Below are positions 3,003-34,110 of a DNA stretch of 50,220 nt, in pieces; position 1 is the stretch's first letter; every line of letters starts with the position of its first letter. The stretch lies in the NCBI GenBank assembly GCA_964562105.1, contig CAZLRP010000003.1:15718-65937 (forward strand). The letters are read 5' to 3'. A model generated the notes under the pieces. That model did not search any database. It was given only the letters and a program-made list of their open reading frames with translations, and was not told the origin of the DNA. This DNA comes from an uncultured Candidatus Saccharibacteria bacterium. GTDB lineage: Bacteria; Patescibacteriota; Minisyncoccia; Phycocordibacterales; GWA1-40-21. The position numbers and the translations under genes were made by a program.

Positions 3003-3427
3003 CCGCCTCTCTTTGTTGTGAAGACGGTTTGTTTGCCGGTCAGGGAAAAGGTTACTGACAGCTTTTTTTGCGAAGGTGAGACCTTCGAAAGTTTTTAACA
3101 CAGAAAAATGCTTTTGTATAGTCTTGTTTGTTTTTGGGGCAGGTATAAAATCATTGCAGACAAATCCAATTCATAATTCAGAAAAAAGTTTTGGTTTTTA
3201 CAAATGTATTTTATATTAAGATTGAGTGGTCGAATTGATCAATCTCTTTTTAGTGTATATTTAGTAAAATGTGTTGTGGAGTTAAGAAAGCGATGAATTG
3301 TAGTTTCTACTTTGGACGCTTGGACTACAAGGAGCTAGTAGCGTAACCGGTCTTTTGTTGGGATCGGTATTTTTATTTTGTATTTTTATTAACCTTCGTA
3401 TGGATTAGGACTTTAAAAAGCAAATGA

Positions 3428-5132: not shown

Positions 5133-6923
5133 ATGAAAAAAATAATTATCAGCTTGTGCATTATTGCTGTTGTGGCGGTGGTTGCTGTTGGTACTACTCA
5201 CTCCTATTTTTCTGATACCGAAACAAGCAATAATAATATTATTCAAACAGGTACAGTTGATGTAGATATTGATGGACAAAATCCTTGGACTGGCAAATTT
5301 GATTGGGAAAATATCAGACCAGGCGACACCAAAGAAATAACTTTTGTAATACACAATATTGGTACTTATCCGATTAAACTTTGGAAAATTATTAAAAATT
5401 TAACTACCGAAGAAAATGGAATCGCTGGGCCAGAACAAGACTGGTATACCGATAATAATGTCGGAGTCGCCAAGAATGACATTGATACGGCGATGGTTTA
5501 TGAAATGTATGTTGATGGTCAGATTGCTGTTGAAAAAGAAGCCGGAATCACACTGGATAAAATTAAAAATTATTATATGAATTTGGTGAAATTGGATACG
5601 GCGACAGACCCAAGCTATACCGGTCCGAATCCAAATGGCAGTGGGATATTAAACCCAGGAGGTTCGGTAACGGTTGTTCAGAGATATCATTTTAAAGAAG
5701 ATACCGGCAATTGGGCTCAAAGCGACAAAATGATTTTTGATATAGAAATTTTAGCACAGCAAGTCAGTGCGCCAGAACCAGTGAAGCAGTTGTCTTTTAT
5801 AAACAATAAAAATGTATTAGATAACAGTTGGAGCACGATAGCGGACAGTAGGGTTGGGCTTTTGAAATATGATTCAATAGCGCAAACTTTCAATTATAAT
5901 TTTCTTGGAGTTGGGCTTAGTCCTGCTACAAATTATTGTTTGATTTATTCCAAAGATCCTTGGACTGGAGGGGAAAAGATTTTAATTGACAAAGGTATGT
6001 CAGATGCGAATGGAAAAGTAAGTTTGATAGGCTCAATGGATACTGGTGATTTGCCAAATGCTGATGATGGTAATTATCCAACCGGAGCAAAAATTTGGTC
6101 TTTACCCTGTTCTAGCTCAGGCTATAATGAAAGTAGCCAAAGTGTCGGTTGGCCACCGCAAAATGATTGGCTTTTTGATAATTGGCCAGGGTTTATAAAA
6201 TATACGAATGGAGAAACGCCAGCTGAGCCAGCTGATGATCCACCTGCTAGTGGCAGTCAAACCATAATTATAAACGAATTAGGTGGCGATATTGGCAATC
6301 AATATGGTTATCAATTTGGAGGATATCCAACTGCAAATGTAACTTTTACATACAATACGCCAGCTCCCAATAAATTAAGCGGAACTATTACAGCTACGGG
6401 GTTGAAACCTTACGCAACCTATCAGGTAAAATTTATTGGTGATCCAACTAATGAAATGGCGAATGAATACATTGGATATAAAGGCAGATGGACAGTAACC
6501 AATGTCTCTTGTTCTGGTTCAGGGTGCAACAGAACAGATGCTCAATATGAAGCTAATAAAATTTCGCATGCTGAAACTATCGCTGGATATTTGGTTTGGG
6601 ATTTTTTCACGGCTGATTCAAGCGGTAATGCGACAAAAGTTGTGGAAACTGCAAACAGTTATCATGTGCTTTGGTCTGGTGGCGGAACATGCAATACGGT
6701 TGCCAATACTTATTTGGCAAATTTGGATTCAGCGCATCCTACTATTAAATTTTCTCCCGCGGACAAAGTTGATGGAGAAATTGAACGTGGCACCTGTGGC
6801 GGTTTGACCTTGAATCCTGGTACTTATGATTTAAAAATGGTGTTGACCGAAGAATCGTTCCATCAAAGTCCAGGCACTTGGGCAGAAGTATTAATGAAAG
6901 ATATTAATTTTGTTATCAATTAA
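5133..6923 (+). CDS. SipW-cognate TasA-family protein with C-terminal extension domains (start probably 5133; track start 5109)
   Basis: ..VGTT/HSYFSDTETSNNNIIQTGTVDV; IRPGDTK; GNWAQSDKMIFDIEILAQQ; paralogous to 3827-4888. Confidence 0.85.
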   Translation: MKKIIISLCIIAVVAVVAVGTTHSYFSDTETSNNNIIQTGTVDVDIDGQNPWTGKFDWENIRPGDTKEITFVIHNIGTYPIKLWKIIKNLTTEENGIAGPEQDWYTDNNVGVAKNDIDTAMVYEMYVDGQIAVEKEAGITLDKIKNYYMNLVKLDTATDPSYTGPNPNGSGILNPGGSVTVVQRYHFKEDTGNWAQSDKMIFDIEILAQQVSAPEPVKQLSFINNKNVLDNSWSTIADSRVGLLKYDSIAQTFNYNFLGVGLSPATNYCLIYSKDPWTGGEKILIDKGMSDANGKVSLIGSMDTGDLPNADDGNYPTGAKIWSLPCSSSGYNESSQSVGWPPQNDWLFDNWPGFIKYTNGETPAEPADDPPASGSQTIIINELGGDIGNQYGYQFGGYPTANVTFTYNTPAPNKLSGTITATGLKPYATYQVKFIGDPTNEMANEYIGYKGRWTVTNVSCSGSGCNRTDAQYEANKISHAETIAGYLVWDFFTADSSGNATKVVETANSYHVLWSGGGTCNTVANTYLANLDSAHPTIKFSPADKVDGEIERGTCGGLTLNPGTYDLKMVLTEESFHQSPGTWAEVLMKDINFVIN

Positions 6924-15728: not shown

Positions 15729-15793
15729 TTTTTTTTGAAAATAGAAAGAGGATTTTATTTTCTTTTTGGTTTGTTTAGATATATAATATAGGT

Positions 15794-16579
15794 ATGTTAA
15801 AAAGTACAAATCATTTAAAATCTATTCTCTCCTACATCCTCGGAGCCACTCTCGTAATTGGGGGAGTAGTCTTTGCTGGTACACTTACTCCTTCAGTAAG
15901 CATAGATACAGCAAACTTTGTAACTTTATCTGACATATACAACAAAATCATACTGAATACATACTCTACTTCTACTCACTCAATATCCACCACATCAGCT
16001 CCTGTAGCATCAATGTACACTCTTCTTGAAATATGGAATGGAATCCCCGCAATTGACTCCAGTAAAATGCTAGATACATACTCTCTAATGGGAGTTACAG
16101 GCGCAATAGCCGTAAAAACAAACGATAATGCAGTTACAATCACTTCCACTTCTACAAACAAACTTCTTCTTACTGTTCCAGCAGGTTATTATGGCGGTTC
16201 TGCTACTGTTTCTACAACTTCCACTTCTTTTGACCCCGCTAATATTGCAAATGGGGTGAATATTTTTGGAATCACAGGAACATTAGGAGTAGTATGGGAT
16301 ACTGCCGAGGTTGGTACTATGGATTGGGCTACAGCCGTCTCTACTTGCACAGGACGTGGATCCAGACTTCCAACTGAAGGAGAATTAATGAAGGGGTTAT
16401 CTGATCAATTTATACAGAGTCCAGCGATAGCTGATGGTTTTGTTCAAGAGGATTCTTATTGGTCAAGCAATGTGTTTTCATTTAATGACAGTTATGCTTG
16501 GCAAGCTTCAGCTGGCGAAAGTATAATGAGTGGTACTGGAGTAAAAACCTCTCTTGGATTAGTACGTTGTGTTCACTAG
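15794..16579 (+). CDS. Surface protein with a C-terminal DUF1566/CLec-like domain (paralog 1)
   Basis: Signal/TM, Thr/Ser-rich stalk, C-terminal RLPTEGEL..YWSS..AW..LVRCVH. Confidence 0.75.
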   Translation: MLKSTNHLKSILSYILGATLVIGGVVFAGTLTPSVSIDTANFVTLSDIYNKIILNTYSTSTHSISTTSAPVASMYTLLEIWNGIPAIDSSKMLDTYSLMGVTGAIAVKTNDNAVTITSTSTNKLLLTVPAGYYGGSATVSTTSTSFDPANIANGVNIFGITGTLGVVWDTAEVGTMDWATAVSTCTGRGSRLPTEGELMKGLSDQFIQSPAIADGFVQEDSYWSSNVFSFNDSYAWQASAGESIMSGTGVKTSLGLVRCVH

Positions 16580-16656
16580 GTTTTAATTTTTAGATGATTT
16601 TATTAATTAATAAATAAGATTAAATTCGTTTATAATTTAATATTAATAATGTTATT

Positions 16657-17370
16657 GTGTTAAAATTCTCAAATTTTTTTAAACATCTTCTTTCGTACAT
16701 TCTCGGAGCCACTCTCGTAATTGGGGGAGTAGTCTTTGCCGGTACACTTACTCCTTCAGTAAGCACAGATACGGCAAACTTTGTAACTTTATCTGATATA
16801 TACAACAAAATTATACTGAATACATACTCTACTTCCACTCACTCTATATCCACCACATCAGCTCCAACTGCTTCAATGCATACACTATATGAAATATACA
16901 ATATCATACCTACCTTATTACCTGCCACTATTCTCACCAATACCACCATTATGGGTGTAGCAGGAACTTACAACACATCAAATCTTATCCCAGGTAATGT
17001 AGCTACAGGAACCGCTTATGGAACAAGTTCTGTGGGGACTCTTGTTGAAGCACAAGCTACGGAGTGGGATGCAACTGATAATCCTGCCGGTAATGTTAAT
17101 TGGTTTGCGGGAGGTACGTATTGTGCCAGTCTTTCATCAGTCGGAGGAACAAAAGACGGAATGCCTTGGAGATTGCCATCGCAAACTGAATTGATAGCTA
17201 AATATAACGGAGATCATTCTGGTTTTGAGGAGTACGGTACGTATTGGTCTGGTACTACGGATACAGATCCGGAACACAGTGACTCCGCCTACGGTGTCCA
17301 TATGACATTTGGTCCCGCATGTTGCGCTAGCAAATTATATCTAACCGCGCTTATTCGCTGTGTTCGTTAA
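16657..17370 (+). CDS. Surface protein with a C-terminal DUF1566/CLec-like domain (paralog 2)
   Basis: N-terminal ~80 aa nearly identical to paralog 1; C-terminal WRLPSQTEL..YWSGT..AY..LIRCVR. Confidence 0.75.
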   Translation: MLKFSNFFKHLLSYILGATLVIGGVVFAGTLTPSVSTDTANFVTLSDIYNKIILNTYSTSTHSISTTSAPTASMHTLYEIYNIIPTLLPATILTNTTIMGVAGTYNTSNLIPGNVATGTAYGTSSVGTLVEAQATEWDATDNPAGNVNWFAGGTYCASLSSVGGTKDGMPWRLPSQTELIAKYNGDHSGFEEYGTYWSGTTDTDPEHSDSAYGVHMTFGPACCASKLYLTALIRCVR

Positions 17371-17404
17371 TTTACCTCTATTTTCACACAATGTAGTGTA
17401 GTTC

Positions 17405-17476
17405 TTGACAAACCACCTAAACAAATCTATAATCAAGATAGAAAGTCATTGCTGATTCTGATGAATCGGTGAGTTG
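17405..17476 (+). promoter_or_regulatory. Sigma70 promoter plus conserved structured 5' leader, copy 1
   Basis: TTGACA-N17-TATAAT, then TAGAAAGTCATTGCTGATTC-TGAT-GAATCGGTGAGTTG; homologs at 20214 and 22453. Confidence 0.85.
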
Positions 17477-17523
17477 AAAAATAAAAAATCTGATAAAAAG
17501 GACGTTCCTTAAAGGAGGACGAT

Positions 17524-18867
17524 ATGTACAGGGAATTAAAATCACCAATTGCCGTTCAATTAGAGATGACAACAAAATGTAATCACAAATGTATCCACTG
17601 TTACAATCATTGGAGGAAAGATTCCGTACGAGATAAGACCCTCAGTGAAGATGATGTAAAAAATATCATTGAAAATCTGAGAAAAAGTGAAGTTCCCAGC
17701 TTACTGATTACGGGTGGAGAACCGATGCTTTATCCTGATTTGATGCTCAAGGCACTTGAAATTGGGAAAAGTGCTGGGTTGGAGTATTCCTTAAATTCTA
17801 ACCTGACACTTGTAACTCCAGAAATTGCAAAAAAGTTAAAGAAACTAAAAATTGGTGTGTTAACGTCAATTTTATCTTTTGACAGAAATGTGCATGATAG
17901 TATAACAACGTTAGATGGTTCTTTTGATAGACTCATTGCGGGAGTTAAGCTCATGCAGAGGTATGGAGTTTCAGTTAGTGCGAATATGGTGGTCATGCAA
18001 AAAAACATAGACCAAATTTATGAGACAGGTAAGTTTGTTCATGGTTTGGGCTTGTCGGGGTTTAGAGCAACGAAAGTTCACCCGGCACAGGGATCATCAG
18101 ATTTCGAGAAAATAAAACTTCCACCAGAAAGAATTGTTGAAATTTTTGACAACCTTATCAAATTAAGAGAAGATTTCGGGCTCAAGGTTGATTCTCTAAC
18201 CACATACCCAACATGTCTTGTAAAAGACATGGATCGTTATGGTCAATTTATCCTAAGGCGAAGTTGTAGTGCTGGTAAAACTGGTTGTACAATAGGTGCT
18301 GATGGACAAGTTCGGCCATGTGGACACTCTGACGATAATTATGGCAATGCTACCGAAGAATCACTTCTTCAGATTTGGCCAAGATTGAAAAAGTGGAGAG
18401 ATGATTCTTTATTACCAAAAGAGTGTAAGGAATGTAAGTATGTTATCGAATGTAGTGGCGGTTGTCGCATGGATTGCAAATTCTATGGAAAAATCGATTC
18501 AATGGATCCATATGCGACGGGAAAAGATTTTAATTACATTCCTCAAAAACCAGAAAAAGTTGTACTTCTCCATTCTGAAACAGAGTTGATTATTGATCCG
18601 ACTCTTCGTTTTAGGCTAGAGAAATTCGGGTCGGTATTGATTGTTGAAAACAATGTCACATCAATAATTAGCCCAGATTCCGCAAAGTTGTTGAAGGAAC
18701 TAATGGGCACAATTTTTACACTGAATAGTATTTCCAATAAATATGGACTCGACGTGGAAATTGTGCGTAATTTTTTTACAAGCTTACGCAAGCAAAAAGT
18801 TATCTGTTTGTCGGATAAAATCTCTAAAGTAAAAGAAAGGAGGTTGTGTTATGGCAAAAACTCTTAA
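17524..18867 (+). CDS. Radical SAM/SPASM domain peptide maturase with a probable C-terminal RRE (PqqD/MftB-like) domain
   Basis: CNHKCIHC (CxxxCxxC); ITGGEP; SPASM CSAG..C..GADGQVRPC and CKEC-x5-C-x3-C; C-terminal LRFRLEKFGSVL followed by helices. SD AAGGAGG. Confidence 0.9.
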   Translation: MYRELKSPIAVQLEMTTKCNHKCIHCYNHWRKDSVRDKTLSEDDVKNIIENLRKSEVPSLLITGGEPMLYPDLMLKALEIGKSAGLEYSLNSNLTLVTPEIAKKLKKLKIGVLTSILSFDRNVHDSITTLDGSFDRLIAGVKLMQRYGVSVSANMVVMQKNIDQIYETGKFVHGLGLSGFRATKVHPAQGSSDFEKIKLPPERIVEIFDNLIKLREDFGLKVDSLTTYPTCLVKDMDRYGQFILRRSCSAGKTGCTIGADGQVRPCGHSDDNYGNATEESLLQIWPRLKKWRDDSLLPKECKECKYVIECSGGCRMDCKFYGKIDSMDPYATGKDFNYIPQKPEKVVLLHSETELIIDPTLRFRLEKFGSVLIVENNVTSIISPDSAKLLKELMGTIFTLNSISNKYGLDVEIVRNFFTSLRKQKVICLSDKISKVKERRLCYGKNS

Positions 18868-18988
18868 TTTAGGGTTTGTCCAAATGGCAACTGCGGGTAA
18901 TATGTTCGGGAATAGTTCCGAACACTTAAGCTGCGATTGCGTCAGTTGTAATTGCGACTGCTGGTGCGATTACGACAAAGGTAATTAA
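18851..18988 (+). CDS. Putative RiPP precursor peptide 1 (45 aa, 6 Cys); not in ORF track
   Basis: Manual translation MAKTLNLGFVQMATAGNMFGNSSEHLSCDCVSCNCDCWCDYDKGN. SD GAAAGGAGG, overlaps the rSAM stop, terminator follows. Confidence 0.85.
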   Translation: MAKTLNLGFVQMATAGNMFGNSSEHLSCDCVSCNCDCWCDYDKGN

Positions 18989-19008
18989 AGTCTTATAATA
19001 AAGACTTG

Positions 19009-19038
19009 CTGGCTAATAGAAATATTAGCCAGTTTTTT
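19009..19038 (+). terminator. Intrinsic terminator after precursor 1
   Basis: CTGGCTAATA-gaaa-TATTAGCCAG-TTTTTT. Confidence 0.8.
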
Positions 19039-19133
19039 ATTAGATTGACAAATCACTTCAATTAGTATTACAATTATTTTAGAAGGTTATTATCGATAGG
19101 GTATGAACAAAATTCTTAATAAGGAGGTAAGCC

Positions 19134-19253
19134 ATGAAAGAAACATTAGAGTTGGGATTTGTTGCATTGGTTGATGGTCAGGTAGATACGAATGCAAGTA
19201 ATGATCTTAATGTTTGCGACTGCTACTCTACAATCCCAGGCAATCCAAATTAG
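19134..19253 (+). CDS. Putative RiPP precursor peptide 2 (39 aa, CDC); not in ORF track
   Basis: Manual translation MKETLELGFVALVDGQVDTNASNDLNVCDCYSTIPGNPN. SD AAGGAGGT; own TTGACA..TACAAT promoter; shares TL-x-LGFV leader and CDC with peptide 1. Confidence 0.8.
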   Translation: MKETLELGFVALVDGQVDTNASNDLNVCDCYSTIPGNPN

Positions 19254-19273
19254 AGTCTTATAGCAAACACTCG

Positions 19274-19301
19274 CTGGTCAACGAAATGTTGACCAGTTTT
19301 T
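19274..19301 (+). terminator. Intrinsic terminator after precursor 2 (homologous to 19009-19038)
   Basis: CTGGTCAAC-gaaat-GTTGACCAG-TTTTT. Confidence 0.8.
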
Positions 19302-19332
19302 ATTTAAGTTAAATATAGCGTATAATAATGAA

Positions 19333-20178
19333 ATGAAAAAAATAATTTTAAAAATTAGCCAAGAGACAGAAACAAAGTTTTTTTCTAGATTTTTGCATAG
19401 CAAGTTATTTCCTCAGCATAAATACATGATTTTTTCTAGTTTTCCAGAATTAAAAGAAAAGATTGATTCGTCAAAGAAAAAAGAAAAAATAATCATTAGA
19501 GAATTTTTAACAAAAATTAGAGAAGATAATAAAGACAATATAGAAAAATCAATAATTTTTATTAAAAATGAAATAGAAAAAAAAGGAGAAAAAAGTTTAC
19601 AAATTTTAGCTAATTTAATGGATTATAAATGGAAGCTAAAAAGTGAAGATTATATTCTAATGCCAACCCTTTTGCCGTTCTGCCCATTTGAAGACAATAC
19701 TTTTCTATATTCAATATACAGGTCTTTAAAAGGTAAAGTAGAATATCCTGATGTACTGGCTGTTTCTATGCATGAAATATCCCATTTTATTTTTTTTGAT
19801 ATTTTGAAAGATAAAAAAATTGAATTAAATCAAGATCTCCTTTATTTTGTAAAAGAGCTAGTCGCACCAGTACTAGTGTACCAAGATGATTTTGATGAGC
19901 TTTTTAAAAAAGGAATTATTGGAAACTATAATGTTTTAGAAATTTATTTTGAACAAAATAATAAAATAGTAAAGGCTTTTGATTATTTTCTTGAAATGTT
20001 TATTAAAAATAGACAAACAAAAAAAGATTTTAGTAATTTTCTTAGTGAAATGATTTCCATTAGCAAAAAAATAGAACCAGAGATAAAGGGAAAGATAGCT
20101 TTTTATAATAAAAATGGAATGAACATAATGAAAGATCCTGAACTTTTAAAAAAATTCCAAGAACCTATCAAAATTTAA
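19333..20178 (+). CDS. Hypothetical protein with a HExxH (zincin-like) motif
   Basis: SMHEISHFIF; TATAAT 6 nt before the ATG (leaderless-type). Confidence 0.6.
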   Translation: MKKIILKISQETETKFFSRFLHSKLFPQHKYMIFSSFPELKEKIDSSKKKEKIIIREFLTKIREDNKDNIEKSIIFIKNEIEKKGEKSLQILANLMDYKWKLKSEDYILMPTLLPFCPFEDNTFLYSIYRSLKGKVEYPDVLAVSMHEISHFIFFDILKDKKIELNQDLLYFVKELVAPVLVYQDDFDELFKKGIIGNYNVLEIYFEQNNKIVKAFDYFLEMFIKNRQTKKDFSNFLSEMISISKKIEPEIKGKIAFYNKNGMNIMKDPELLKKFQEPIKI

Positions 20179-20213
20179 TAATAATCCTAAAAAGGGGAGT
20201 ATCTGTGTAGCCC

Positions 20214-20285
20214 TTGACAAACCACCTAAACAAATCTATAATTAAGGTAGAAAGTCATTGCTGATTCTGAAGAATCGGTGAGTTG
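20214..20285 (+). promoter_or_regulatory. Sigma70 promoter plus structured leader, copy 2
   Basis: First 29 nt (TTGACA..TATAAT) identical to copy 1; leader TAGAAAGTCATTGCTGATTCTGAAGAATCGGTGAGTTG. Confidence 0.85.
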
Positions 20286-20312
20286 TTAAAATAAAAAAAG
20301 AGGAGGTTTGTC

Positions 20313-20876
20313 ATGGAAACTAGGCGTATTTTTTTAAGACCGGCTGAAAAGTCGGACATTCCTCTTTTATATATTTGGAGGAATACCGAATCGTATCGGG
20401 AACTTTTTTCCGGAAGAAGAAATATTATCAGTATGGAAGAATTTGAGGTGGAATATAAGCGGGACGCCGAAAGACTCAAACATGTACAGTTTCTTGTTTG
20501 TTTGAAAACAAACAAGAACCCCATTGGTTTGATATATTCATACAACTATGTTCCAACTGATGGACATGTTTTTATGGGTATATTTGTAGACGAACACTTT
20601 CGTAAGATTGGTTATGGAGCAGAAGCGACGATTTTATTCGTTAAGTTTCTGTTTGACATGTATCCAATACATAAAGTGTTGGCAGAAATATACTCCTACA
20701 ATAAGCCGTCTTTATCTGGGTCAAAGAATCTCGGTTTTGTTGTAGAGGGTGAATTCAAAAATCACCGCTTCTATAAAGGGAGGTATTGGAATGTTCTGAG
20801 AATGGCCCTTTATAGAGAAAATTTAGCACGATTAGAAAAGATTCATAACAAAATCTCTTTAATAAACAGTTCATAA
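20313..20876 (+). CDS. GNAT N-acyltransferase, RimJ/RimL family
   Basis: IFLRP N-terminus; FRKIGYGAEA acyl-CoA motif; N..S..G..NLGF..EG; SD GAGGAGGT. Confidence 0.85.
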   Translation: METRRIFLRPAEKSDIPLLYIWRNTESYRELFSGRRNIISMEEFEVEYKRDAERLKHVQFLVCLKTNKNPIGLIYSYNYVPTDGHVFMGIFVDEHFRKIGYGAEATILFVKFLFDMYPIHKVLAEIYSYNKPSLSGSKNLGFVVEGEFKNHRFYKGRYWNVLRMALYRENLARLEKIHNKISLINSS

Positions 20877-20915
20877 TAATTATGAACTAAATCAAAAAGA
20901 AAGGAGGTAGTCCAA

Positions 20916-21077
20916 ATGACGAAATTCTTAACCGGTGGCGGTGGCGACGGAGATGAAGACGACGGTCAGAAAGTCGATGAAGATTTCGATGATACGGCCG
21001 CAAGTGAACAGGGAAATGACACACCAGAACCCTCTGAACCAGCTGAGCCTTCCGAACCGTCCGTTCCAGATCAGTAG
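20916..21077 (+). CDS. Putative 53-aa acidic Gly/Asp/Pro-rich peptide; not in ORF track
   Basis: Manual translation MTKFLTGGGGDGDEDDGQKVDEDFDDTAASEQGNDTPEPSEPAEPSEPSVPDQ. SD GAAAGGAGGT; terminator follows immediately. Confidence 0.75.
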   Translation: MTKFLTGGGGDGDEDDGQKVDEDFDDTAASEQGNDTPEPSEPAEPSEPSVPDQ

Positions 21078-21089
21078 TTCCATTTAGTA

Positions 21090-21135
21090 AAATGGGGAGA
21101 ATCTTACTTTAAAGTTCTCCCCATTTATTTTTTTT
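21090..21135 (+). terminator. Intrinsic terminator after the acidic peptide
   Basis: AAATGGGGAGAA..TTCTCCCCATTT followed by a T-run. Confidence 0.75.
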
Positions 21136-21152
21136 AATGTATAATTATTATC

Positions 21153-22436
21153 ATGAGTAAATCAAGAGAACTAGGAATAGAATTTTATAAAGAAAAATTA
21201 CCAAACAATTCTTCTATTTTTTTATATAAAAGAAAGGGTTTTCCGATAAACATACAGATTGTTTTTAATGCAGGTGCTCGTTTTGGTAAAAAACCGGGCA
21301 TATCGCATTTTTTGGAACATTTATTACTAGCTGGATCAAAAAAATATCCAACAAAAGATGCCCTCTGTGTTCCATTAGAAAATATTGGTGGATCAATAGG
21401 TGCGTCTACTGGCTCAGAATTTTTATACATCAATGTAAATATAGCGGACAAAGAAGATATAGACATTGCTATTGATGTGATCAATGAATCGGTTAATAAT
21501 TCGTTATTTGATAGTAAAACCATCGAAAATGAAAGAAAAGCCATTCTTTCTGAAATCGGTAATAGAAAATCAAACCCCTCATCAAATGTTTGGGATATTT
21601 ATAAAAAAGTATTTTTTCAAGAAACTATTCTTCAAAATTCAGGCTTGGGCACGTCGGAGATAGTTTCTAGTACCACAAAAGAAGAACTTGTTGATGAATA
21701 CTCAAGACTTATAAAAGAGGGACGCCCGACTATAATGGTAAGTGGGGATGTTGATATAGATTCTTTGAAGGATAAATTTAGTATTATTTTAAATGGGACA
21801 AAAGATATTTTTTCAGGTCTTATCGGAACAAGTTTACCTATAGTAAAAAACAAACGTATTGAGGTTGAAGAATATACAGCTGATCAAGTTCATATGATTT
21901 TAGGTTTTCGAACAGGCATACATTCTATTGTAGATAATATTCCAGCACATATATTATCTATGTTGCTGGCTAAAGGCAGAACTTCTATATTAATGTCTGA
22001 ATTGAGATACAAAAATGGTTTGATATATAATATTAGTGGTTCGTCTAATTATTTTGCTGATTATTCAATGTGGCTTATAAATACATCAACAGATAAGAAA
22101 AATGTTCAAAAAGTAATAGATCTCATTCTTTTGGAAATAAATAAAATTAAAAATAATGGTATTACTGAAGATCAATTGAATTTTGTTCGGTCAAAATCAA
22201 TTAAATCACTAAAATTTTCATTACAAACATCCGCATCTTTAGTTAATTCTAATATAATTGAAGTGATGATGAATCAAAATGATTCTTATACATTGGATGA
22301 TTTTGTTACTGATATGGAAAAAGTAACAGTAGAAGATATTTTAAAATGTGCTCAAAATATATTTAATACGGATAATTTTTTTATCGCACTTTGTGGCAAT
22401 ATAGAAGAAAAGGATATCAAAATAAATATATCTTAA
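21153..22436 (+). CDS. M16 family (pitrilysin-like) zinc peptidase
   Basis: Inverted zinc motif GISHFLEHLL (HxxEH), ERKAILSE, and C-terminal ELRYKNGLIYNI. Confidence 0.9.
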   Translation: MSKSRELGIEFYKEKLPNNSSIFLYKRKGFPINIQIVFNAGARFGKKPGISHFLEHLLLAGSKKYPTKDALCVPLENIGGSIGASTGSEFLYINVNIADKEDIDIAIDVINESVNNSLFDSKTIENERKAILSEIGNRKSNPSSNVWDIYKKVFFQETILQNSGLGTSEIVSSTTKEELVDEYSRLIKEGRPTIMVSGDVDIDSLKDKFSIILNGTKDIFSGLIGTSLPIVKNKRIEVEEYTADQVHMILGFRTGIHSIVDNIPAHILSMLLAKGRTSILMSELRYKNGLIYNISGSSNYFADYSMWLINTSTDKKNVQKVIDLILLEINKIKNNGITEDQLNFVRSKSIKSLKFSLQTSASLVNSNIIEVMMNQNDSYTLDDFVTDMEKVTVEDILKCAQNIFNTDNFFIALCGNIEEKDIKINIS

Positions 22437-22452
22437 GGTAAGTATCCATTTC

Positions 22453-22523
22453 TTGACAAATAATTAAATTGTTCTATAATCGTGGATAGAAAGTCATTGC
22501 CGATTCGAAGAATCGGTGAGTTG
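22453..22523 (+). promoter_or_regulatory. Sigma70 promoter plus structured leader, copy 3
   Basis: TTGACA-N16-TATAAT; TAGAAAGTCATTGCCGATTC-GAA-GAATCGGTGAGTTG. Confidence 0.85.
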
Positions 22524-22561
22524 TTAAAATTCAAAAAATCTTTGGAAAAAGGAGGTGTGAG

Positions 22562-23044
22562 ATGAACACTGTTTTGTTTGCTGAACGAGTGGCCAGTTAT
22601 GGCACTTTGACCATTATTACAGTCTTAGTTGATGAAATTGTTTGGCCGGCAGTAGTTTTATGGCAGGGCCCAGTCATTGGCGGATTTATTATGTTCTGCA
22701 TCTCGCTTTTAATTAATCTCATTTTGATCTGGTCATATGACAAGATTAAAAAAGATGTTTTTGCTTTTGAGACTCTTCGTGAGATGGCAGATCAAAAACA
22801 AAAGAGTTTTGGTAAGCGAATACTTGCATGGTTCATCAGAGCCGGTAAGGTGCCTGCATTCATTGCGATTTCATTTTATGACCCGTTTCTTTCCGTGATT
22901 TATATGCGGAAGGGAGTAGAAAAGTATAAAATGGAAAAGCGTGACTGGGGATATTTTGGATTAGCAATGATAATCGGCTGTGTTGGCTGGACGCTTTGTT
23001 GGCAGGGAGTTTTTATTACTGCTAAAGCGGTTTTTGGACTATAA
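22562..23044 (+). CDS. Hypothetical integral membrane protein (about 3-4 TM)
   Basis: 160 aa with hydrophobic segments; SD AAGGAGGTG; hairpin terminator at about 23045-23076. Confidence 0.75.
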   Translation: MNTVLFAERVASYGTLTIITVLVDEIVWPAVVLWQGPVIGGFIMFCISLLINLILIWSYDKIKKDVFAFETLREMADQKQKSFGKRILAWFIRAGKVPAFIAISFYDPFLSVIYMRKGVEKYKMEKRDWGYFGLAMIIGCVGWTLCWQGVFITAKAVFGL

Positions 23045-25934: not shown

Positions 25935-27572
25935 ATGGATCATAATTTAATTACGAATCTTGAAACTTGTTTGCCCTCACTTATGGATGTTCTAAATGGA
26001 AATCTCAATTTATTATACTATTCGCATTTACCAACAATAATTATTTCTTTATTTTTAGGTTTTTTTGTTTTATTCAAAAGCAGAGAAAAATTATTATCTA
26101 GAGTTTTCTTTTTTTTATCTCTAGTTTTTGCTTTATGGTCAATTCTAGATTTGTATACATGGTTAAGTTTTGATACCAGAATAATAATGTTTACATGGTC
26201 ACTTACTGGTTTAGTGGAAGTTCTTTTCTTTGTCCTAAGTTTCTATTTTTTGTATGTATTTTTTGAAAAGAAAGATGTTCTCTTTAGATATAAACTACTC
26301 GGAGTAATTATCTTGCTGCCTTTAATTATAATGATACCTTTAAAGCTTAATCTATTAGGATTTAATTCTGATGGGTGTTATGCCTTAGAAAATAATTACT
26401 CCCTATATTATAAATATTTTATTGAAATAATCCTATCCATTATTATTGTTATCTTTTCTTTAATAAAAATTCGACAACAAGTAGATAAAAATTTAAGAAA
26501 ACAATTAGTATTTTTGTTTTGGGGAATTATGTTGTTTCTTTTTTCTTTTTTCTCTGCTGTATTTTTAAGTGGTTATTTGGTAGATGCAGGTTGGGGAGTC
26601 AAAGGTTACAGTGTTGAGATTTATGGTTTGTTTGGAACTATTATTTTTATGGCCTTTCTTGCATATCTCATCGTTAAATTTAAAGCCTTCAATATCAAAC
26701 TCATCGGTGCGCAGGCGCTTGTTTGGTCACTTATAATTATTATTGGTTCTCAGTTTGCTTTTATACAAAATCCAACAAACAAAATTCTCACGACTATTAC
26801 ATTGATTATTTCTGGTGTAGTTGGTCTCATGATTGTTCGTGGGGTAAAAAAAGAAATTTTTCTTCGAGAAAAGCTTGAAGTGGCAAATGCGGGACAAGCA
26901 AACCTTATCCATCTTATGAATCATCAGATTAAAGGATATTTAACTATCAGTAAAAATGTTCTAGCGGAACTTCTCACGGATGATTATGGCAAAGTACCGG
27001 AAGAAGCAAAAGAAATAATTACAAAAGGTTTGGAAAGTTCCAACAGAGGAGTCAGATATGTCACGGATATATTGAAAGGAGCAAGCGCAGAAAGCGGAAC
27101 TCTGACTTACAATATGCAAAAAATTGATTTCAAGGAAATCGTTTTGACTACGATTGAAAGCAGAAAAGAAATAATAGAAAATAAAAAGCTGAAACTTGAA
27201 GTAGATATTGCAGATGGCGACTATAATATGACGGGTGATAGATCACAGCTTGGAGAGGCCGTCAGAAATCTGATAGAAAATTCTGTTTATTATACTATCG
27301 CAGGAGGGATAGCTATTCATTTGAAACACAAGGCCGGAAAAATACTTTTTTCAGTGAAAGATACAGGTGTTGGAATCAAACATGAAGATAGATCTAAAAT
27401 ATTCAAAGCCGGAGGTGTTGGTAGCGATTCCATAAAAATAAACGTTAATAGCTCAGGTTATGGTCTTGCTTTTGTAAAAGGTGTAGTAGAAAAACATAAT
27501 GGCAAAGCTTGGTTTGAATCCGCCGGTGCTGGCCACGGCTCAACTTTCTTCGTAGAACTGCCGGTGGAATAA
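25935..27572 (+). CDS. Sensor histidine kinase with a multi-TM (HisKA_7TM-like) N-terminus
   Basis: H-box MNHQIKGYL, N-box NLIENS, DTGVGI, GYGLAFVK, GHGSTFFVELP. Confidence 0.9.
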   Translation: MDHNLITNLETCLPSLMDVLNGNLNLLYYSHLPTIIISLFLGFFVLFKSREKLLSRVFFFLSLVFALWSILDLYTWLSFDTRIIMFTWSLTGLVEVLFFVLSFYFLYVFFEKKDVLFRYKLLGVIILLPLIIMIPLKLNLLGFNSDGCYALENNYSLYYKYFIEIILSIIIVIFSLIKIRQQVDKNLRKQLVFLFWGIMLFLFSFFSAVFLSGYLVDAGWGVKGYSVEIYGLFGTIIFMAFLAYLIVKFKAFNIKLIGAQALVWSLIIIIGSQFAFIQNPTNKILTTITLIISGVVGLMIVRGVKKEIFLREKLEVANAGQANLIHLMNHQIKGYLTISKNVLAELLTDDYGKVPEEAKEIITKGLESSNRGVRYVTDILKGASAESGTLTYNMQKIDFKEIVLTTIESRKEIIENKKLKLEVDIADGDYNMTGDRSQLGEAVRNLIENSVYYTIAGGIAIHLKHKAGKILFSVKDTGVGIKHEDRSKIFKAGGVGSDSIKINVNSSGYGLAFVKGVVEKHNGKAWFESAGAGHGSTFFVELPVE

Positions 27573-27577
27573 GATTT
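27538..27577 (+). repeat. Kinase 3'-end direct repeat, copy 1 (native)
   Basis: GCTCAACTTTCTTCGTAGAACTGCCGGTGGAATAAGATTT; 40-bp identical copy at 29418-29457, 34-bp copy at 28775-28808. Confidence 0.9.
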
Positions 27578-27709
27578 TTTTCAAAAATTTATAAAATCAT
27601 TGTTTTTTAAGATATTTGACTTTTATCTATTCGCCTGGTACACTCCGTCTCGGGTATCTTAAATGTTTTAAGATAAATCAAGTACTTTAATAGAAAGGAG
27701 GTAGCAAAT

Positions 27710-28721: not shown

Positions 28722-28774
28722 TAGTTAAACTGGCAAGAGAAACATTTATAAAATATATGTATAATAAAGGTTAC

Positions 28775-28808
28775 ACTTTCTTCGTAGAACTGCCGGTGGA
28801 ATAAGATT
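28775..28808 (+). repeat. Kinase 3'-end direct repeat, copy 2
   Basis: 34 bp identical to 27543-27576. Confidence 0.9.
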
Positions 28809-28814
28809 ATTTTT

Positions 28815-29409: not shown

Positions 29410-29417
29410 AAACAACA

Positions 29418-29457
29418 GCTCAACTTTCTTCGTAGAACTGCCGGTGGAATAAGATTT
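29418..29457 (+). repeat. Kinase 3'-end direct repeat, copy 3
   Basis: 40 bp identical to 27538-27577. Confidence 0.9.
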
Positions 29458-29604
29458 GTTATTTTATTAAATTAAATATACATAATTACAAGAATTTGAC
29501 ATATTTATAATTTACTTGTATTATCAAATGTAGAAGTATAGGGAAGAAGATAAATTCTATCCTGTTGAAAAATAGCGCCAAAGCGCAAAAAAAGGAGGTT
29601 CATC

Positions 29605-32286: not shown

Positions 32287-34110
32287 ATGGAAAATAAAAC
32301 AATAGACGATAATAAGAATAGACTTTCGTTTTGGGATTTTTTGGCCACACTAAAGTGGCTCTTTGCTTTTAATTTTAAATTATCTCCTTGGATTGCAACA
32401 TCACAGGTTATAGTTAGAATATTTTTAGATACCAGCCCGTTGCTTAATGCTTTTATTTTTGCCAAACTTTTGGACAAAATAATTAAGATTGCTAGCAGTT
32501 CAAATTCTAATCTCGATGACATTGCTCCATTATTGGGACTTTTGCTTATTTTAAATTTGGTAATTTCTGCCTTAAATTCAGCTTACACTTATGTATCTAA
32601 TATGATGATGCAAATGTCCAACTATAAAGTACCGATAATTTTAGCCAAACATATCAATTCACTTGGAATTCAAACGTTGGAAAATCCTGAGGTTGTTAAT
32701 AAAATCCAAAGAGCAAGAGAAACTATTAATTCTATAAATAATGATTTCGAAAGGATGATAATATTTGTTGCCAGAGTCATAGTATTGATTTCCGCATCAA
32801 TTATAGTTATAAAAATAATGCCACTTATAGCTCTAATTATTGTTGTTGCTATCATTCCTGAGCTTATTTGTAATAGAGTATACATGAGAAAAAATTGGGG
32901 TTTTTGGCATTCTGAAACGGAAAATAGTCGCAGGGCTTTTTCTGCCACAGGATCATTAAATGAAGTGACAAATTTGCAAGAAATAACGATTACCTCATCT
33001 TTTCGATTACTAAGTAATGTTTTTACTAATTTTACGAATTATTATATAGCTGGGCAAAGAAAAATCATGAAAAGCTGGCAGTTTTTTGGTTTTTTCTTAG
33101 GTTCAATAACAGATATTGCAAGTATTTTTGGCTATTTCTCAATTTTAAAAAATTTATTTTATAAATTAATATCTGTTGGTGATGTGACTTTCCAAATGAG
33201 AGCACTAGATATGTTTACCAATAATTTCTCGATGGTTGTTAATGGTTTTGGCGGTCTTTATGAGCGTTCTATCAGAATTAATGAAGTTAAAATCGTTTTT
33301 GATATGAAACCAATGGTAGAGGATGGCAATATAAAATTACCAAAATTAGAAATAACTCCTAGTATTAAATTTGAGAACATTAGTTTTAAATATCCCGGTG
33401 CCGATAGTTATGTTATTAAAAATCTTAATCTTGACATCAAATCCGGAGAAAAAATAGCTATAGTTGGTGAAAATGGCGCAGGTAAAACAACTTTGGTAAA
33501 ACTTTTGAGCAGGTTCTACAAAGTAGATGATGGATCTATTTTATTAAATGATATAAATATTAATAATATAGAGATAGAAAGCTGGTATAAAAATTTAGGA
33601 GTATTATTTCAAGATTACAATACTTATCCTTATTTGACGCTTAAAGAAAATATTTATCTGGGAAAGTCTGATGAACCTTTGGATATGTCTAAAATTCAAG
33701 TTGCAGCACAACAGGCAAATGTTAACTCTTTTATTGAAGGTTACAAAAATGGCTATGATCAGGTTTTGAGTGAAAAATACAAGGGAGGTACACGTCCGAG
33801 CACTGGGCAATGGCAAAAAATAGCTATAGCTAGATTTTTCTATCGTAATTCACCGGTAGTAGTGTTTGATGAACCAACCGCTTCAATAGATGCTGTTTCT
33901 GAGGCCGAAATTTTTGGCAAGATTTATGATTTCTTCACAGACAAAACGGTCATAATTATTTCTCATAGATTTTCTACAGTTCGCAATGCTGACAAGATCT
34001 ATGTTTTGGATAAGGGAGAAATAATTGAAAGTGGAAACCATGATGAACTTATAAAATTAGAAGGAAAATATTATAAAGCATTCAATATTCAAGCAAAAGG
34101 ATATAAATAG
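32287..34110 (+). CDS. ABC exporter, fused TMD-NBD
   Basis: Multi-TM N-half; GENGAGKT; variant signature PSTGQWQ; VFDEPT; SHRFSTV. Confidence 0.9.
   Translation: MENKTIDDNKNRLSFWDFLATLKWLFAFNFKLSPWIATSQVIVRIFLDTSPLLNAFIFAKLLDKIIKIASSSNSNLDDIAPLLGLLLILNLVISALNSAYTYVSNMMMQMSNYKVPIILAKHINSLGIQTLENPEVVNKIQRARETINSINNDFERMIIFVARVIVLISASIIVIKIMPLIALIIVVAIIPELICNRVYMRKNWGFWHSETENSRRAFSATGSLNEVTNLQEITITSSFRLLSNVFTNFTNYYIAGQRKIMKSWQFFGFFLGSITDIASIFGYFSILKNLFYKLISVGDVTFQMRALDMFTNNFSMVVNGFGGLYERSIRINEVKIVFDMKPMVEDGNIKLPKLEITPSIKFENISFKYPGADSYVIKNLNLDIKSGEKIAIVGENGAGKTTLVKLLSRFYKVDDGSILLNDININNIEIESWYKNLGVLFQDYNTYPYLTLKENIYLGKSDEPLDMSKIQVAAQQANVNSFIEGYKNGYDQVLSEKYKGGTRPSTGQWQKIAIARFFYRNSPVVVFDEPTASIDAVSEAEIFGKIYDFFTDKTVIIISHRFSTVRNADKIYVLDKGEIIESGNHDELIKLEGKYYKAFNIQAKGYK

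Follow-up and report, generated by a model that had tools for sequence, protein, structure and literature searches.

In this work, we analysed a 50,220-nucleotide stretch of DNA (the window; contig CAZLRP010000003.1, positions 15,718 to 65,937) from an aquatic uncultured bacterium with 34% G+C, assigned to Candidatus Saccharibacteria, and found in it a gene pair that encodes a hyper-acidic peptide of 53 residues and an M16B zinc peptidase. By following this pair through related loci, we identified the peptide and the M16B enzyme as a conserved core, which persists while the genes on both of its flanks change, and a GNAT acetyltransferase encoded directly upstream in the window as a partner that is, going by gene content, optional (Table 1). 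As a pair of neighbouring genes the two are solid on comparative grounds; for what they do, we tentatively favour, at a probability of about 0.4, the explanation that the peptide is a dedicated substrate of the M16 peptidase, N-acylated in those loci that have the GNAT.

The product of the small open reading frame (ORF) is MTKFLTGGGGDGDEDDGQKVDEDFDDTAASEQGNDTPEPSEPAEPSEPSVPDQ, with 10 Asp, 7 Glu, and Lys at positions 3 and 19 only; its net charge is about −15. It consists of a basic and hydrophobic head (MTKFLT), a GGGGD hinge, an Asp/Glu-rich body and a Pro/Glu/Ser tail that ends in PDQ. A preliminary description of this DNA, made from the letters alone, had read the glycine run, the two lysines and the composition of the tail as we do, but had taken the tail for a repeat, and Tandem Repeats Finder reports no tandem repeat in the DNA that encodes it. 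The peptide had also been called unannotated, which holds in that it is nameless but not in that the Logan gene callers and an NCBI record do call the 53-residue product. There are 1,353 start-to-stop ORFs of 20–90 residues in the window, 41 of them led by a Shine–Dalgarno (SD) sequence, and the acidic peptide ORF alone combines an SD with at least 30% Asp plus Glu; its SD/start region is a repeat of that of the first precursor gene in a neighbouring radical S-adenosylmethionine (rSAM) unit. Pfam, NCBIfam, PADLOC and a profile search of the PDB gave no match for the peptide, and in a word search of 5.8 billion proteins and an HMMER scan of 1.84 billion representatives the query matched itself only; by exact look-up, the related mini-ORFs described below are singleton clusters. 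Modelled with AlphaFold2 as a single sequence, the peptide has no secondary structure (mean predicted local distance difference test (pLDDT) score 64, predicted template modelling score 0.15).

Related loci, referred to here by L numbers, were reached through a graded series of M16 orthologues, and similarity between peptides was judged against composition-preserving shuffles. In L010, whose M16 is 81% identical to that of the window, the M16 gene is preceded by the SD-led ORF MKLNGPEDDEAEDTDIDDDAATEQGNNPAEPDQ and then a terminator; in L013/L014 (45% M16 identity) it is preceded by MRNGPGDDEGGDESDSVHNDDGCDHPDNSSDADANSPDTDAGH, and in L015/L016 (39%) by MKKKCFCRGGGGGDDDGCVHDDFSDESGPDSPETDAGGDGCGEPAE, which itself follows a gene for a GNAT 52% identical to the one in the window. 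L003 carries a GNAT homologue (76%) followed by an SD and MRRLYSGGGGGDGETEQDPDNP, ended by the end of the contig. Three of the peptide pairs stand clear of their shuffles (window–L010, z 7.2; window–L015, z 4.4; L015–L013, z 5.1; each p ≤0.001), and three further pairs reach p values of 0.012 to 0.016. In the aligned stretches, 11/16, 12/19 and 9/13 identical residues use different synonymous codons, and because this is the case for most identical residues, we see selection on the peptide's protein sequence, which argues that the acidic ORF is a real, translated, fast-evolving and lineage-specific gene family. A hairpin with a T-run stands 3′ of the small ORF in L010, L013, L015 and L017 as well, and the SD of each of the ORFs compared is a strong one.

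On the 5′ side, the pair adjoins the GNAT gene in the window and L015, a gene for a Thr/Val/Pro-rich lipoprotein in L010 and one for a membrane protein in L013; on the 3′ side, it is followed by a membrane protein gene in the window, by SET-domain protein genes in L013 and L015 and, in L010, by the gene for a 184-residue protein that has no Pfam match and whose N-terminal segment is hydrophobic, and the 3′ neighbour of M16 in L012 encodes a DsbB-like protein. The SET-domain genes come as two in tandem and are followed by a histidine kinase gene (L013 2223–3244, L015 8746–9761). The pair is, as far as the orthologues reach, a feature of a limited lineage, because M16 orthologues at 34–35% identity (L018, L020/L021) come without a small ORF. 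Short acidic SD-led ORFs 5′ of the M16 genes of L017 (37%) and L019 (36%) are alike in composition only, and the distant M16 matches are mostly labelled Patescibacteria. In L011, MKETVEFLRQFKVTGIATPEPAENVINNGKGNACDGCGDGCGGGNGNDDGDGC (positions 10–171) lies directly 5′ of a 76% M16 orthologue, the preceding DNA being beyond the short contig; this peptide has a start (MKET) like that of the second rSAM precursor of the window, a PEPAE stretch like the acidic tail and a Cys/Gly/Asp core.

The peptidase matches Peptidase_M16 at 9.9e-22 and Peptidase_M16_C at 4.9e-26, both above gathering scores, and its best solved relative is 3HDI (1.1e-23). The HFLEH stretch at residues 52–56 corresponds to the HxxEH motif, which is kept in the orthologues, and the ELRYKNGLIY stretch, assigned by eye, to the R/Y motif; with this pair of motifs and both domains, the enzyme is predicted to be catalytically competent, and since HxxEH and the R/Y pair lie in one chain it looks like a homodimeric M16B type. 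It scores below the PqqF, YfmF and YfmH equivalog cut-offs (27 bits against 320 for the PqqF model, TIGR02110). Because a terminator and then its own −10 box precede it, M16 is probably made from a leaderless mRNA of its own, separate from the GNAT/peptide transcript. A −10-like box 6–16 nucleotides 5′ of M16, without an SD, recurs at most orthologous loci (about 37 nucleotides away in L013, none in L019). In the window (21140–21155), L010 (3440–3464), L012 (25–43) and L015 (7400–7425), M16 starts 6–10 nucleotides past the box, which has the form TGnTATAAT in the last three and comes immediately after the small ORF's terminator, and the other genes of these genomes shown here have strong SDs, unlike M16; this points to a leaderless mRNA as a conserved feature.

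The GNAT matches Pfam Acetyltransf_3 at 1.1e-13 (52.6 bits versus 25.4), and its R97-K-I-G100-Y-G102 stretch, an instance of the R/Q-x-x-G-x-G/A acyl-CoA motif, is invariant in the GNAT alignment. Its best solved relatives are SpeG (1.7e-11), AAC(6′) enzymes and RimJ (4.6e-4), and its NCBIfam scores fall below the equivalog cut-offs for SpeG (34.9 versus 218), RimJ (17.7 versus 190) and PseH (39.5 versus 93.1). Only three close homologues were found among 5.8 billion proteins, all on tiny contigs, and the GNAT alignment retrieved no relatives from either JGI metagenome contigs or GTDB genomes; the narrow orthogroup has four members at 52–76% identity, the L015 orthologue at 52% included. An AlphaFold2 model from a three-sequence alignment is poor (pLDDT 62.6).

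The GNAT gene is found in the window, L003, L004 and L015/L016 and is absent from L010 and L013. A small ORF after GNAT homologues, as the preliminary description would have it, is indeed conserved: an SD-led acidic ORF with a glycine run follows the GNAT genes of both L003 and L015/L016, and in L004 an SD and an ATG follow at the contig end. Of the three-gene module proposed there, the trio of GNAT, acidic ORF and M16 recurs in L015/L016, but L010 and L013/L014 keep the peptide and M16 without a GNAT, so that the tightest partner of the peptide is M16 and not the GNAT. Since M16 identities group the window with L010 and L013 with L015 (51% M16 identity), the presence of the GNAT has changed at least twice.

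The peptides differ accordingly at their N termini. All three GNAT-linked peptides have a basic and hydrophobic head of 6–8 residues followed by GGGG(G)D, and both GNAT-less peptides start with M(K/R)(L)NGP(E/G)DDE. This co-variation of head and GNAT, a clean pattern in a small sample, is the sole sequence evidence beyond adjacency that ties the GNAT to the peptide. The three GNAT-linked heads have no Lys, Ser or Thr in common, so that Nα-acylation is the only possibility they share. Acylation of lysine, as had been suggested, finds no conserved residue to act on, the L003 peptide starting with MRRLYS and the L013 peptide having no Lys at all. Cleavage after a double-glycine leader, suggested as well, was rejected: only 6–8 residues precede the glycine run, against about 15–25 in such leaders, and no Peptidase_C39 is found among the window proteins scanned, where the ABC protein encoded at 32287–34110 has ABC_tran only. 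In L003 (586–600), L004 (890–900) and L015 (7118–7130), the GNAT stop codon is overlapped or adjoined by a TTGACA box, which gives the small ORF a promoter of its own; the window has no such box at this place, and the peptide ORF there would therefore depend on the GNAT promoter.

In the explanation we favour, the short unfolded peptide would be the dedicated substrate of the chambered M16B enzyme, which would process it or turn it over, and the GNAT would be an accessory tailoring enzyme that, where present, acylates the N-terminal head, a basic and hydrophobic 6–8-mer linked to the acidic body through a Gly4–5 hinge. The likeliest target of acylation would be the α-amine, because it is the only nucleophile common to all GNAT-linked heads. 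M16 chambers accept short unfolded substrates, and the absence of predicted structure in the peptide is compatible with that. The data show the reality of the gene, its family, its synteny, the co-variation of head and GNAT and the motifs of the two enzymes; the substrate relationship, the acylation, its site and the co-regulation discussed below are what we infer.

Several observations weigh against this explanation. Conserved adjacency could reflect regulation or binding instead of cleavage, and a terminator and a separate promoter stand between the peptide and M16 genes. The GNAT is, by the gene contents compared, dispensable for the peptide/M16 pair, the closest of its solved relatives acetylate polyamines, and its correlation with the glycine run rests on three versus two peptides. 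The homologous peptides known number only five, of which two are incomplete or stem from short contigs, and, Asp, Glu and Gly aside, they have no conserved core residue, Met alone being invariant in their alignment. The peptide has neither a recognisable leader nor an exporter, the more distant M16 orthologues are not accompanied by a small ORF, and a run search found no RNA run holding this region.

Some of the same observations would suit a peptide that is not a substrate but a regulator, be it of the M16B enzyme (as an inhibitor, chamber plug or substrate mimic) or of another basic partner. A strongly regulated peptide promoter would then set the activity of a constitutive, leaderless peptidase, and the separate transcription units of the pair, a peptide that combines high negative charge with no predicted structure, and the lack of conserved core residues indicating a defined product are all in keeping with this. 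We consider it unlikely nevertheless, as it leaves the GNAT and the co-varying head unexplained, more distant M16 orthologues work without such an ORF and we know of no precedent for a trans-encoded acidic M16B inhibitor. It is doubtful, though a little easier to entertain, that the GNAT is unrelated to the peptide, with which it would share only operon and synteny, and that it acetylates a polyamine, an antibiotic-like compound or another protein, an idea that overlaps with the other alternatives. The SpeG spermidine acetyltransferases and AAC(6′) enzymes among its best solved relatives point this way, as do the loci without a GNAT and the separate promoter of the small ORF in L003, L004 and L015; set against them are NCBIfam scores far under the equivalog cut-offs, a GNAT gene that adjoins the ORF in every readable GNAT locus and a peptide head that co-varies with the GNAT over two independent gains or losses.

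That promoter and leader are identical in the rSAM, GNAT and membrane protein units of the window, that rSAM cassettes lie 5′ of M16 in both the window and L010, and that L011 has a Cys/Gly/Asp-rich peptide with a precursor-like MKET start could be taken to mean that all of these genes form one cluster for a RiPP (a peptide made by ribosomes and modified after translation), with the acidic ORF as a third precursor or a helper and M16 as the leader peptidase for all peptides. This we hold to be improbable: the pair occurs in L013 and L015 with no rSAM gene nearby, identity between the window and L010 is only 33% for the rSAM enzymes although it is 81% for M16, and the HExxH proteins of the two rSAM cassettes are unrelated. 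Cys is missing from the acidic ORF, which was rejected as a paralogue of the rSAM precursors (p 0.56 and 0.15); these two are similar to one another (z 8.6). The module is also independent of the rSAM unit because the L015/L016 trio has no rSAM gene within 7.4 kb upstream. Most improbable of all is that the ORF arose by chance in GA-rich DNA, or that GNAT and peptide are the toxin and the acidic antitoxin of a toxin–antitoxin pair. Several overlapping ORFs in other frames are present here, and acidic, unstable antitoxins are common; yet the SD, the terminator, the pattern of synonymous codons and the conservation across loci speak against chance, and the peptide is kept where the GNAT is absent. 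A GNAT toxin–antitoxin system of the TacT/AtaT kind was rejected, as the GNAT is an Acetyltransf_3 protein of another type, there is no RHH/DUF1778 domain or partner, and PADLOC gives no hit.

PqqF/PqqA and AlbE/AlbF are examples of M16B peptidases that mature ribosomal peptides, and so are the class III lanthipeptide proteases Bcn-gP1/gP2 and PttP1/PttP2, which are M16B heterodimer pairs (PMC8960859). As in these maturation systems, a chambered zinc peptidase with HxxEH and R/Y motifs is genetically tied here to a small gene for an unstructured peptide, and a gene for a tailoring enzyme adjoins the peptide gene. Unlike in the heterodimeric lanthipeptide pairs, both motifs lie in a single chain (the 3HDI-like homodimer type), and the peptide is hyper-acidic, without a Cys, Ser/Thr or Tyr core and without a recognisable leader. 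Identity with PqqA/PqqF was rejected, given the PqqF score and a peptide that has no Glu-x3-Tyr core.

Like the GNATs of RiPP pathways (goadsporin GodH, PMC5303826; the microviridin N-acetyltransferase), the GNAT gene adjoins, and is co-transcribed with, a short peptide gene. Those two GNATs, however, act on the new N terminus left by leader removal, in a heavily modified core, whereas here the head that the acidic peptide has from the start, with no other modification presumed, would be the target; moreover, the GNAT is optional in this lineage. The likeness is one of arrangement. With RimJ/RimL/SpeG-type Acetyltransf_3 enzymes, it shares the Pfam family and the acyl-CoA motif while scoring below every NCBIfam equivalog cut-off. 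A precursor clustered with a modifying enzyme and a protease across relatives, a criterion for RiPPs, is found as the trio in the window and L015/L016 and as ORF plus M16 in L010 and L013. Of leader and core features, a head and glycine run semi-conserved in the GNAT-linked members were found, and no protein of the RiPP recognition element type. By analogy, then, the arrangement may work like a minimal RiPP-type locus of precursor, tailoring GNAT and M16B protease.

The peptide is also reminiscent of the N-terminal region of Pup, a short, disordered and acidic protein that begins with a basic stretch and then a Gly5-Asp run. A Pup/UBact tag was rejected: there is no Pfam Pup match, the C termini (PDQ, PAE and AGH) are not of the GGQ/GGE kind, and no PafA/Dop or proteasome genes are found among the window proteins scanned. 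As a long shot, the locus might represent an undescribed peptide system. A hyper-acidic, disordered mini-protein with a Pup-like N terminus (basic head, Gly5, Asp run) would there be N-acylated by a GNAT dedicated to it, the M16B enzyme that handles it would be a homodimer made from a leaderless mRNA, and its role would be that of a new kind of protease regulator, protein tag or intracellular signal rather than that of a secreted RiPP of the usual sort.

Most bacterial M16B peptidases have no known biological role (PMC8960859), and a conserved, genetically linked candidate peptide partner makes one such enzyme, from an uncultured lineage, directly accessible to experiment. The peptide family, for which there is no Pfam model and no database relative, is of a sort that, being small, escapes automated annotation and RiPP miners. 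Should the co-variation of GNAT and head be borne out by a larger sample, it would be one of the rare cases in which sequence points to the acceptor site on which an orphan GNAT acts.

Table 1. Location of the GNAT/peptide unit, the M16 gene and the neighbouring units in the window
Feature	Positions	Strand	Evidence or remark
Consensus sigma-70 promoter of the GNAT/peptide unit	20214–20242	+	TTGACA-17-TATAAT, 12/12 matches
Shared 5′ leader	20249–20312	+	Invariant 37-nt block, hairpin 20258–20281, then A-rich stretch and SD
GNAT acetyltransferase, 187 aa, Acetyltransf_3 (RimJ/RimL/SpeG-like)	20313–20876	+	Pfam; R97-x-x-G100-x-G102 acyl-CoA motif
Shine–Dalgarno sequence AAAGGAGG	20900–20907	+	8 nt 5′ of the peptide ATG, direct reading
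Hyper-acidic small ORF, 53 aa	20916–21077	+	Homologous mini-ORFs in L003, L010, L013/L014 and L015/L016
Intrinsic terminator closing the GNAT/peptide transcript	21090–21137	+	12+3 bp stem (hairpin 21090–21126), then T-run
TATAAT box, no SD	21140–21145	+	7 nt 5′ of the M16 ATG; probable leaderless M16 mRNA
M16B zinc peptidase, 427 aa	21153–22436	+	H52-F-L-E55-H56 and ELRYKNGLIY (R/Y) motif, same chain
Third unit sharing promoter and leader, 160-aa membrane protein of no assigned family	22453–23044	+	Co-regulated neighbour (probable); not kept beside M16 elsewhere
rSAM-SPASM unit sharing promoter and leader, two Cys-rich precursor ORFs (18851–18988, 19134–19253)	17405–19297	+	Context, outside the conserved pair

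The layout of promoter, leader, GNAT, SD-led acidic peptide, terminator and M16 is present in full as the preliminary description gave it. The gap of 39 nucleotides between the GNAT stop and the peptide ORF holds neither promoter nor terminator, and the two genes are, on this reading of the DNA, co-transcribed in the window; the terminator hairpin that follows has a predicted energy of −19.9 kcal/mol (z −4.88), and none of 200 shuffles (0/200) was equally stable. Promoters of the same type stand before the rSAM unit (17405–17433) and the membrane protein unit (22453–22480). The leader of the GNAT unit is 90% identical over 93 nucleotides to that of the rSAM gene at 17524, its 37-nucleotide core is also found 5′ of the membrane protein gene at 22562, and a 19-nucleotide core has three matches in the window against 0.03 expected. 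The copies of promoter and leader together span 17396–17488, 20205–20297 and 22445–22537. In the third, the promoter spacer has diverged, and the leader has changed only by a pairing-preserving U-to-C substitution and a shorter loop.

Because the consensus promoter and the 5′ hairpin leader are identical on all three, the GNAT/peptide, rSAM-RiPP and membrane protein units are probably turned on together. Close to the predicted 5′ end, the leader forms a hairpin of 10 bp, and since the window encodes an RNase J, this 5′-terminal hairpin may be an mRNA stabiliser; that its palindrome is an operator is an equally open reading. No Rfam family matches the leader, either in the whole window at gathering score or, for the rSAM-unit copy (17380–17540), at a relaxed threshold, and the leader motif, when run against JGI metagenome contigs and GTDB genomes, gave only chance matches, in unrelated taxa and without promoter context. 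Third-position G+C is 0.32 in the rSAM gene, 0.35 in the GNAT gene, 0.43 in the acidic ORF and 0.38 in the membrane protein gene, all of which bear the leader; it is lower in the interleaved genes for a 281-residue protein and M16 (0.18 each), most of the window being at 0.2–0.3. The 160-residue membrane protein was tried as an orthologue of the membrane protein encoded 5′ of the L015 GNAT and rejected, as the two have no similarity.

The neighbouring rSAM-SPASM cassette (17524–20178) encodes the maturase, Cys-rich precursors of 45 and 39 residues, each with its own terminator, and the 281-residue protein, which carries a HEISH motif. An equivalent cassette lies at 87–2298 of L010, where the rSAM enzyme is 33% identical and accompanied by an unrelated Peptidase_MA_2 protein; the 281-residue protein was rejected as an orthologue of the latter for want of any similarity. 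Between the window and L010, the rSAM cassette thus looks, from its position, like one replaced at a fixed site, and with no counterpart around L013 and L015 the rSAM unit is, by synteny, outside the conserved pair. Another rSAM gene, with a 37-residue Cys-rich ORF (MKKVTIRFKSAACNPKVTGMAHSGCCDQNGGCHKKHG) and an Acetyltransf_1 GNAT, is found at 5616–7715 of L020, about 2.6 kb 3′ of the 35% M16 homologue.

Elsewhere in the window, a 46-nucleotide repeat occurs at 27535–27580, 28767–28812 and 29415–29460, one copy comprising the end of a histidine-kinase gene and bases beyond it and two copies being intergenic (89–96% identity). These copies bracket two low-G+C cassettes, one with a 74-residue ORF and an α/β hydrolase gene and the other with a 168-residue ORF, which looks like repeated insertion at one site. 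A c-di-GMP-II riboswitch at 3277–3361 (59.5 bits, above gathering score) stands 5′ of an operon for two camelysin-like M73 peptidases, a signal peptidase and large surface proteins, and the genes for two paralogous surface proteins with Lcl_C domains share a 266-nucleotide 5′ region that is 84% identical (15774–16039 and 16637–16902). Near the start of the window, the terminator-like hairpin AAAAACTGCAGATTTCACTCTGCAGTTTTTT is present in three identical copies, at 40–73, 1065–1098 and 1815–1848.

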